The notes under the pieces were generated by a model. That model ran no database searches and had not been told where the DNA came from. It saw nothing but the letters and a program-made list of their open reading frames with translations. A DNA stretch of 10,078 bases from Candidatus Nanohalobium sp. (GTDB lineage Archaea; Nanohalarchaeota; Nanosalinia; Nanosalinales; Nanosalinaceae), in the NCBI GenBank assembly GCA_042216335.1, contig JBDGTY010000013.1, forward strand, positions 13,355 through 23,432, written 5' to 3'. Position 1 is the stretch's first letter; each line of letters opens with the position of its first letter. Positions 1 to 7,799 of this stretch are shown piece after piece. The position numbers and the translations under genes were made by a program.

Positions 1-288
1 GAAGCTGTTGTCGTGGAACTGGTGGACCTTCTCGCCCTCCTCTGCAGGTAATTGAATCATCTGGATGGCGTTATCGTATGGGTACTTGTTGATCGCCATC
101 TTGTGAGCCTCCATCACGTCCTCCTCAGCGATGTGGAGTTCCTCGTTCTCGTCGATGTAGAAACCGCCCTCTTTTCCTGCACGATTCAAGGGGTCGTAGT
201 TGATGACTGTTTCACGGGCCAGGTCAGGCTCGATCTTGTCCTGATCGATTACGACGACGAAGCGCTTGCTGTTTTTACCTTTCTCCAT
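1..288 (-). CDS. rli: ABCE1/RLI ribosome-recycling ATPase, N-terminal 96 aa (partial, continues beyond window start); Fe-S-like domain lacks Cys
   Basis: Manual translation from ATG 288: MEKGKNSKRFVVVIDQDKIEPDLARETVINYDPLNRAGKEGGFYIDENEELHIAEEDVMEAHKMAINKYPYDNAIQMIQLPAEEGEKVHQFHDNSF. It follows the archaeal ABCE1 N-terminal pattern (IAVID.DKC.P..C...C...CP.NR.G...I.EE.C..C..C..KCPF.AI.I.NLP......VHRYG.N.F) colinearly. GAGGT SD-like motif upstream. The ATPase domains lie outside the window. Confidence 0.85.
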   Translation of the reverse strand, partial: MEKGKNSKRFVVVIDQDKIEPDLARETVINYDPLNRAGKEGGFYIDENEELHIAEEDVMEAHKMAINKYPYDNAIQMIQLPAEEGEKVHQFHDNSF

Positions 289-319
289 AACTGGAAGTTT
301 ACCTCAAAGAATTAAAGTT

Positions 320-6369: not shown

Positions 6370-6828
6370 ATGATACTGATTCTGGCCGGGAGAAAAGATA
6401 TTCAGAAAGGGCCTGTGAAAGAACTATACTCGCGGTTGTCACTGGATAAGGCCTCGGAACTCATGGAGCTGGAACCGCCCTCTGAGGTAGTCTTCGGCGA
6501 CCAACTGGATAAAATCAGAAAGAAACTAGAACCAGGTACGGAGTTAATAGGCTACTGTTTTGGAGGGACTTACGCACTTAATATTGAGGACGACTGGATC
6601 GATTCAAAGATCGTTATCGATCCGCCTGAAGGAGTAGAAGACTCAAATGGAGAAACAATAGCTCCGGATTTCTCTACAGCAACGTTCCTGATAGGCTCCG
6701 GCAGCATGGATGAGGACGAAGTTCCGGATAGTGTTGAGTCGAAGTTCTTCGATACGGATCACTGGTTTTCAGATTCTAGAGATGGGCTTGTGGATGCCGT
6801 GGCTGAAAGACTGGAAGAAACCTATTAA
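6370..6828 (+). CDS. small alpha/beta-hydrolase-fold protein, dienelactone hydrolase-like
   Basis: Nucleophile elbow IGYCFGG (G-x-C-x-G-G), GSMD, DHWF; 152 aa. Confidence 0.65.
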   Translation: MILILAGRKDIQKGPVKELYSRLSLDKASELMELEPPSEVVFGDQLDKIRKKLEPGTELIGYCFGGTYALNIEDDWIDSKIVIDPPEGVEDSNGETIAPDFSTATFLIGSGSMDEDEVPDSVESKFFDTDHWFSDSRDGLVDAVAERLEETY

Positions 6829-7470: not shown

Positions 7471-7502
7471 GTAGTTAAAGTATTGTGGTTGTCTGGTTGG
7501 TT

Positions 7503-7799
7503 ATGTCTATGGAGTATTTGCGTCAGGAGCTGGGAGTGCCTGATGATGCCGAGGAGAAAAGTGTGGATTCCCGTTTCGATAATGTGGATGGTTTTGAGGC
7601 ACTGGAGTTCGAGGGAGATGACTACACCACGGCCTATATAGAGGTTGAGGACTTCAGAAACAAACTGGGTTTCACGCTGGACGAGGTGACAGAGTGGCTG
7701 GACACGCGTTATGAGACAGACTTTGGCTCTGTTGAGATAGATGATTTTGAGTATGGCAATGACTGGATCATCCTGAGAAGACAGAAAACAGGAGAGTGA
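7503..7799 (+). CDS. hypothetical acidic protein (about 98 aa)
   Basis: Highly acidic ORF. ATG 7503 lies about 24 nt below GTTAAAG, consistent with a leaderless start, preferred over GTG 7485. Confidence 0.7.
   Translation: MSMEYLRQELGVPDDAEEKSVDSRFDNVDGFEALEFEGDDYTTAYIEVEDFRNKLGFTLDEVTEWLDTRYETDFGSVEIDDFEYGNDWIILRRQKTGE

Follow-up and report, generated by a model that had tools for sequence, protein, structure and literature searches.

The only ABCE1 gene found in a Candidatus Nanohalobium genome encodes an N-terminal domain without cluster-ligand cysteines

ABCE1 is among the most conserved proteins of archaea and eukaryotes, and its canonical N-terminal domain (N-domain) carries eight cysteines (Cys) that bind a pair of [4Fe-4S] clusters. 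We analyzed a stretch of 10,078 nucleotides from Candidatus Nanohalobium sp. (contig JBDGTY010000013.1, positions 13,355 to 23,432 of the forward strand), which is referred to here as the window and lies at G000:C5:13355-23432, G000 being our handle for this genome. Positions 1-288 of the window, on the minus strand, are the start of the genome's only ABCE1 gene, and the N-domain encoded there has no Cys. This gene probably encodes the organism's single functional ABCE1 ribosome-recycling ATPase, in which an N-domain that does not bind iron-sulfur (Fe-S) clusters would act as a wedge built purely of protein.

Identity of the gene

The preliminary description of this DNA had proposed that a 96-residue translation without Cys was the N-terminus of ABCE1, and both parts of this proposal were confirmed. 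The open reading frame (ORF) has 96 codons from an ATG at 286-288, stays open past the window start, and contains 0 Cys when translated again. A search of the 96 residues against the Protein Data Bank (PDB) returned ABCE1 chains only (3 of 177,635 distinct sequences: 3bk7, 3j15/5lw7, and 6tmf), with E values of 0.0011-0.0046 and the N-termini aligned in register. Directly before window position 1 is a scaffold gap of exactly 100 N (G000:C5:13255-13354), and the reading frame differs on either side of it. Past the gap, on the same strand and in a different frame, the rest of ABCE1 is encoded at G000:C5:12109-13257, with the signature and Walker B motif of nucleotide-binding domain 1 (NBD1), the hinge, and a complete NBD2. 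The twin NBDs expected downstream were therefore both found. In all, two LSGGELQR signatures, two Walker B motifs, and the Walker A motif of NBD2 were read in this gene.

The two pieces were compared with a 596-residue orthologue from the same genus (G003). They correspond to orthologue residues 1-97 at 91% identity and 214-596 (383 residues) at 85% identity, and thus about 116 codons, including the Walker A motif of NBD1, are absent from the assembly. This motif falls in the 100-N gap and is present in the same-genus orthologue. Residues 11-594 of the orthologue align with residues 21-605 of Pyrococcus abyssi ABCE1 (3bk7) at E 2.5e-159, both hinges included, and in this alignment its NBDs, hinge, and signature motifs are fully canonical.

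Since the ORF abuts the gap and the frame changes across it, the Cys-free domain might be an artefact of mis-assembly, or the gene might be a decaying paralogue beside a canonical copy, as the preliminary description had considered. As 100 N is conventionally inserted as a placeholder, the change of frame carries no meaning. In three genomes of the same genus, one of which is a single-contig assembly, a version of this domain with 91-93% identity begins an open frame of 599-601 codons without interruption, and a Cys-free domain is carried by 54 genomes. No second ABCE1 was found in the genome under study, which is rated 96% complete; its other matches were generic ABC proteins at E 1.8e-9 or weaker. 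These data make an artefact or pseudogene hardly credible.

A Pfam search with the 96 residues gave no family at E up to 10, neither Fer4_RLI nor Fer4. Fer4_RLI (PF04068) had no match anywhere in the genome, and the same search matched all four archaeal control genomes.

Cluster-ligand positions

The eight ligand positions, numbered C1 to C8, were located by aligning the domain to 3bk7, 6tmf, and a canonical relative from the same phylum, with the alignments anchored on the CP-proximal ends. In human ABCE1, the ligand sets are C16-C21-C25-C65 and C29-C55-C58-C61 according to Table 1 of a recent review (PMC13255074), and it follows that cluster A is held by C1, C2, C3, and C8 and cluster B by C4-C7. 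None of the eight positions (0/8) holds Cys in the Nanohalobium domain, and the canonical eight-Cys motif (CX4CX3-4CX3CP...CX2CX2CX3CP) is missing, though the domain is present and aligned.

At the cluster-A site, the alignments place I19 at C1 (232..234, minus strand, as are all codons given here), A24 at C2 (217..219), V28 at C3 (205..207), and Y69 at C8 (82..84), which is followed by the conserved P70. At the cluster-B site, they place D32 at C4 (193..195), M59 at C5 (112..114), H62 at C6 (103..105), and A65 at C7 (94..96). The placement of a one-residue gap decides whether C5 is read as M59 or V58. D32 is invariant in every form without cluster B, and M59 and H62 are invariant among the Cys-free domains. 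Among 32 aligned rows of family f1 (the families of the phylum are given by our handles), the replacement residue is identical in 32/32 rows at six sites (C2, C3, C4, C6, C7, and C8), C1 is I in 30/32, and both C5 candidates are fixed. The substitutions read at first sight, I, A, V, D, V, A, A, and Y, were close, with the exceptions that C6 is H rather than A and that C5 is M59 or V58. The accompanying idea that mostly hydrophobic residues fill the cluster sites holds for the cluster-A site (I, A, V, and Y) and fails for the cluster-B site (D, M, H, and A) with its invariant Asp, Met, and His.

Cys makes up 0.70% of the residues in long ORFs of this genome, and a run of 96 residues would therefore have no Cys about one time in two by chance. 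For this reason, the signal is the replacement of 8/8 homologous ligand columns and not the absence of Cys itself. A domain without Cys should be unable to bind the classical Cys-ligated [4Fe-4S] pair.

The invariant residues at the old cluster-B site could instead point to an exchanged cofactor, with D32, M59, H62, and perhaps E60 forming a mononuclear site (Fe, Zn, or Cu) or a site for a non-cysteinyl cluster. D32, M59, and H62 are invariant in 26/26 Cys-free domains of two families, and the D and H also occur in all four intermediates with four or five Cys. Further, the canonical residues at these positions hold one cluster, going by the table in PMC13255074, so the three side chains should be close together. 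Three mixed ligands without Cys, however, would be ill suited to a [4Fe-4S] cluster, the rest of the domain contains nothing that resembles a metal motif, and a packed, hydrogen-bonded substitute for the cluster would account equally well for an Asp-His pair with a buried Met. We consider a different metal unlikely.

Conservation across the phylum

Of the 70 species genomes of the nanohaloarchaeal phylum, 56 yielded an ABCE1: 46/49 in family f1, 8/8 in f4, 1/1 in f5, 0/10 in f3, and 0/1 in f2. The N-domain was read in all 56. In 54 it has no ligand Cys, in one (G006) it has five (C1, C2, C3, C7, and C8), and in one (G028) it is canonical. Among the 54, one domain is cut at a contig end so that C1 is not visible (G057), and another has a stray Cys in its N-terminal tail (G050). 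The Cys-free N-domain is thus clade-wide and present in most of the phylum. When the 96 residues were searched against 5.8 billion proteins, 155 matches were obtained, of which 120 were listed. No precomputed Fer4_RLI or Fer4 domain is attached to any of the 120 matches listed; those with a named source are nearly all nanohaloarchaea (Candidatus Nanohalobium, Nanosalina, and Nanohalococcus among the names), and one partial protein is labeled Candidatus Aenigmatarchaeota.

Selection on the N-domain was examined in 15 pairs from six f1 genomes. The proportion of nonsynonymous differences (pN) was 0.013-0.105 versus 0.49-0.85 for synonymous differences (pS), and dN/dS was 0.008-0.079 in the 10 pairs for which dS could be computed. 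Across 26 Cys-free domains from f1 and f4, 22 columns are invariant, including D32, P33, L34, N35, R36, G38, M59, H62, and P70. The N-domain is under strong purifying selection, and the low dN/dS indicates that it is conserved rather than decaying.

Structure models and ribosome contacts

Two structure models were built: one of the full-length orthologue from a 37-row alignment and one of the 96 residues of the Nanohalobium domain from 26 Cys-free rows. The full-length model had a mean predicted local distance difference test score (pLDDT) of 88.3, with blocks of the N-domain at 64-82 and the NBDs mostly above 90, and its best Foldseek matches were solved ABCE1 structures at template modeling (TM) scores of 0.72-0.84. 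The domain-only model had a mean pLDDT of 71.6 with a core of about 80, and its elements run strand-helix-strand-strand-helix-strand.

The alignment was also used to follow the residues that touch the ribosome. PMC7196836 lists the post-splitting contacts of Saccharolobus (S.) solfataricus ABCE1 as P25, R28, and S29 to uS12, E74 and E76 in the cantilever, and K15, N17, E19, and K59 to ribosomal RNA (rRNA). The uS12 contacts P25 and R28 are kept as P33 and R36 in the loop P33-L34-N35-R36-A37 (178..192, minus strand), which aligns with P25-R28-S29 and in which P, L, N, and R are invariant in the 26 Cys-free domains. At the position of S29, the Nanohalobium domain has A, and many relatives have S. 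E83-E84 (37..42, minus strand) preserve the cantilever pair E74 and E76.

Intermediate forms and history

Forms with different numbers of Cys were sought among the best 150 of 428 strong library representatives and in a survey of haloarchaea. The resulting series (INTERMEDIATES) runs from canonical domains with 8-9 Cys (G028 and ordinary haloarchaea) through domains with five (G006), four, and one (P0123, C7 only) to domains with none. Three members, G096, G073, and P0191, have exactly C1, C2, C3, and C8, which is the full ligand set of one [4Fe-4S] cluster, and G006 has these four plus C7. All the non-canonical forms of the series have D at C4 and H at C6 in common, and the loops that follow C4 are similar in them. 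The one-cluster forms G096, G073, P0191, and G006 resemble the Cys-free ones in having D at C4, M or T at C5, H at C6, and a DPLNR-type loop, and they differ by keeping C1, C2, C3, and C8.

Trees were calculated from the NBD part only, with the N-domain excluded. All the forms with 0-5 Cys, except the long-branch P0135, fall into one clade, supported by an approximate likelihood ratio test (SH-aLRT) of 98 in a quick tree and by an ultrafast bootstrap (UFBoot) of 82 and SH-aLRT of 94 in a careful tree. The one-cluster forms are in the same clade as the Cys-free ones, P0143 (see below) excepted. The sister of the clade is the canonical G028, weakly supported (77/48). Intermediates with exactly C1, C2, C3, and C8 and a shared D, M, and H at the other site suggest a stepwise loss, and we infer that cluster B disappeared in a single event in the stem of the nanohaloarchaeal ABCE1 clade, before cluster A was lost. 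The residues that fill the A site differ between f1 (I/A/V/Y) and f4 (V/-/A/I, with a one-residue deletion in f4), and this difference fits separate losses of cluster A in the two families, short of proving them.

The five-Cys ABCE1 of G006 (L050, G006:C20:5119-6894) is a mosaic. Over the NBD part, its identity to f1 neighbors is 72-76%; the N-domain, compared without the Cys columns, shares 58-62% of residues with the four-Cys group and only 45-47% with f1. N-domains with and without a cluster thus seem to be exchangeable in nature.

Two other kinds of ABCE1 turned up among the library representatives. P0143 (586 aa) is the reverse one-cluster form, in which C4-C7 are kept and C1-C3 and C8 are replaced, and in the trees it joins the canonical representatives rather than the nanohaloarchaeal clade. 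Eight ABCE1-like representatives (P0161, P0173, P0185, P0195, P0198, P0217, P0250, and P0259) have 2-8 Cys in the N-domain region and a rebuilt first motif, with only C1 at the usual place followed by a long Cys-poor stretch.

Haloarchaea and family f3

Ordinary haloarchaea have the canonical protein. PF04068 matches Haloferax volcanii above the cut-off, and in the class around a Halobacteriales genome, ABCE1 was found in 81/81 genomes. A full N-domain was read in the 30 of these 81 genomes for which loci were returned by the search, and 28/30 are canonical. The two exceptions, G096 and G073, are genomes of 1.9-2.1 Mb in which the four-Cys gene of the nanohaloarchaeal type is the only ABCE1 (L217, G096:C40:8300-10051; L218, G073:C1:1175014-1176765). 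Their NBDs nest inside the nanohaloarchaeal clade, apart from eight ordinary haloarchaeal rows. Possibly an essential gene of translation was transferred, or else the lineage of these two genomes is misplaced. The starting point for this survey, one Halobacteriales locus, came from a degenerate DNA pattern for LSGGELQR; the pattern was unspecific and, among the matches listed, returned mostly bacterial ABC genes. Judged by net charge, no haloarchaeal ABCE1 was among the best 150 library representatives, where such proteins evidently ranked lower.

In family f3, which belongs to the same order as the Nanohalobium genome, no ABCE1 was found in any of 10 genomes (G026, G029, G031, G033, G035, G037, G039, G041, G042, and G043), four of them with a completeness of 91% or more. 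Searches with the Cys-free orthologue, a canonical relative (4 genomes), and the 37-row profile (5 genomes) gave only generic single-NBD ABC matches, none stronger than E 1e-19. If f3 truly lacks ABCE1, this would be remarkable for an archaeal family.

The f3 result bears on the possibility that the Cys-free N-domain is a vestige, the splitting role having been relaxed or taken over. The ATPase would then serve, for example, in anti-association or ribosome biogenesis, and the domain would be an appendage for folding or docking. The difference of several rRNA-contact residues from S. solfataricus would also agree with such a change. Selection of this strength is nevertheless more than a vestige would show (dN/dS no higher than 0.079, with 22 columns invariant), conservation extends to the cantilever residues and the loop that contacts uS12, and the NBDs, hinge, and signature motifs are fully canonical. 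A vestige is, in our estimate, improbable, and even less likely than a change of metal.

Fe-S cluster biogenesis

The preliminary description had suggested that a cofactor-free ABCE1 would free a reduced symbiont from Fe-S biogenesis. This did not hold, since contig C58 of the Nanohalobium genome encodes SufB, SufD, a SufS-like class-V aminotransferase (E 1.4e-130), and a NifU_N/SufU scaffold, and the genome also encodes the radical-SAM protein Elp3. Escape from Fe-S biogenesis was consequently rejected as the reason for the Cys loss, the pathway genes having been kept. The SufB gene contains a LAGLIDADG intein and forms an ORF of 841 residues (L093 1562-4087; G000:C58:19561-22086); SufD is next to it, and the SufS-like and NifU_N genes are about 6-8 kb further along the contig.

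The same outcome was obtained when Cys loss was set against the presence of SUF genes across the phylum. The SufBD core was found in 47/49 genomes of the Cys-free f1, 6/8 of f4, 0/1 of f5, and 3/10 of f3, and NifU_N in 48/49, 6/8, 1/1, and 7/10, respectively. The f5 genome without a SufBD match, G028, is 93% complete and is the one with the canonical ABCE1; it has a strong match to an IscU/NifU-type scaffold (E 6.4e-45), a scaffold type that also occurs in several f3 genomes. Loss of the cofactor from one protein, then, need not track loss of the pathway.

The Fe-S proteome of the Nanohalobium genome is apparently very small. There is one Radical_SAM match genome-wide (Elp3), and of four ORFs of at least 100 residues with classical Fe-S Cys motifs, one belongs to an Fe-S family. 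The primase large-subunit family PF04104 gave one sub-threshold match in this genome (E 0.009; G000:C44:8228-9616, minus strand). This 462-residue ORF has few Cys, mostly in a C-terminal CxxC...C stretch, and the usual Fe-S domain of PriL is not evident in it.

Proposed mechanism and points against it

The cavity of cluster A is filled by I19, A24, V28, and Y69, and site B has D32, M59, H62, and A65. In the proposed mechanism, packed side chains at site A and an Asp-His(-Met) arrangement at site B would maintain the shape of the domain. ATP-driven closure of the two NBDs would still swing the N-domain against the A-site factor, as in canonical ABCE1, which splits ribosomes in an ATP-dependent manner with aRF1 or aPelota, and would drive it into the h44/uS12 pocket, splitting the ribosome. 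The advantage to these aerotolerant fermenters, which lack respiration, might lie in oxic brines, where the supply of an oxidant-sensitive cofactor would no longer be needed for an essential translation factor. This step is the weakest of the proposal, and oxygen insensitivity as the benefit of Cys loss is speculative. A cultured relative of the same genus is described in PMC7443923 as an aerotolerant anaerobe without respiratory complexes, and PMC3442406 names the Fe-S supply to Rli1 as a main target of oxidants in yeast.

Several observations weigh against the reading of this protein as a functional, cluster-free wedge. The Nanohalobium gene is broken by the assembly gap, so the NBD1 Walker A motif is unread in its own genome. 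The fold of the domain alone was matched only weakly: the best Foldseek match of the domain-only model was 3bk7 at E 0.034, TM 0.38, and a root-mean-square deviation (rmsd) of 9 Å, with none at E of 0.001 or below, and the best VIA match was a small ferredoxin at Z 3.8, with ABCE1 at 2.8-3.2 and none at Z of 5 or above, values of a kind that is common. In the comparison with ABCE1 FeS domains, which the preliminary description had proposed, the order of elements fits and ABCE1 and ferredoxins rank at the top, but the matches are weak. With such matches, retention of the ABCE1-type fold by the modeled domain is likely, short of shown. Four rRNA contacts of S. solfataricus are changed (K15 to L23, N17 to R25, E19 to T27, and K59 to N67). 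The invariant Asp, His, and Met at the old cluster-B site could bind a metal, which leaves the description as cofactor-free unproven. No ABCE1 was found in family f3 of the same order, and this group may thus depend less on the protein. Contrary to the oxygen rationale, all eight Cys are kept in aerobic haloarchaea. Lastly, the lack of metal, the ATPase activity, and the ribosome splitting of the Cys-free proteins are predictions from sequence.

Comparison with known proteins

The closest known proteins are canonical ABCE1/Rli1/RLI (P. abyssi 3BK7, S. solfataricus 6TMF, yeast, and human). They belong to the same family, with a ferredoxin-like N-domain, an NBD1 with a helix-loop-helix, hinge 1, NBD2, and hinge 2; they are likewise single-copy, and the uS12-contact loop and the cantilever residues are common to both. 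The canonical proteins have the eight ligand Cys and a Fer4_RLI match, whereas the Cys-free form has neither. Laboratory constructs without the FeS domain (PDB 1YQT, 3OZX, and 5YV5) were among the best sequence and fold matches, and they too are twin-NBD cores without Fe-S. In these constructs, the whole domain was removed by the experimenter, whereas here the domain is kept and conserved and only the ligands are gone. Work by Barthelme et al. in 2011 reportedly found the FeS domain to be needed for splitting.

The next-best PDB matches were ABCF proteins (EttA, YheS, and ARE-ABCF), which are soluble twin-NBD ribosome ATPases without Fe-S. They are only about 18-20% identical in the fold matches, send an inter-domain linker to the E or P site, have no N-terminal wedge, and are bacterial and eukaryotic paralogues. 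Small ferredoxins (Pyrococcus furiosus 1SIZ/2Z8Q and Rhodopseudomonas palustris 4OV1) have the same order of secondary structure as the domain-only model (VIA Z 3.5-3.8, rmsd 2.5-2.8 Å over 49-51 residues). As [3Fe-4S]/[4Fe-4S] proteins, they are electron carriers with Cys-bound clusters, and the likeness is weak and generic.

No description of an ABCE1 without the cluster Cys was found in the full-text literature, a search whose scope excluded subscription journals. In the same literature, ABCE1 and Nanohaloarchaea or DPANN were mentioned together only in unrelated places, and no published description of the one-cluster forms or of P0143 was found. Two reviews, from 2018 and 2026 (the latter PMC13255074), treat the eight Cys as conserved and the clusters as essential. 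With two-, one-, and zero-cluster ABCE1 in a single clade and N-domains apparently swapped between lineages, as in G006, we lean, with moderate confidence, toward seeing these proteins as a natural deletion series of a kind that is lethal according to yeast genetics.

If the Cys-free protein splits ribosomes, the clusters of ABCE1 would serve only as structural supports, for which side chains can stand in. The need of ABCE1 for clusters, often cited as the reason why cells cannot do without Fe-S biogenesis, would in that case be a contingent matter and not a fundamental one. The most far-reaching extension concerns f3, where a true absence of ABCE1 would mean that some archaea recycle their ribosomes by an unknown route. 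With the Cys-free ABCE1 and the one-cluster intermediates, the purpose of the clusters, whether structural, regulatory, or in redox sensing, can be addressed directly. Database proteins 92% identical to the domain carry the source label of a named, cultured nanohaloarchaeon, so the protein can be made and tested. It is also a possible template for an oxygen-insensitive ABCE1.

Neighboring genes

The other genes of the window are housekeeping genes, encoding FtsZ, GatC/A/B, a diphthamide synthase family protein, a NusA-like KH protein, a methyltransferase, and a metallophosphoesterase. No Pfam family was matched at E of 0.001 or below by five ORFs (104-333 residues): 320-1321, 1360-1758, and 2294-2857 on the minus strand and 6370-6828 and 7485-7799 on the plus strand. 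The first of these, at 333 residues, is directly upstream of ABCE1. A spacer of 31 bases (289..319, minus strand) separates its stop codon (320-322) from the ABCE1 start codon and contains an A/T-rich stretch and a GAGGT located 14 bases before the ATG.

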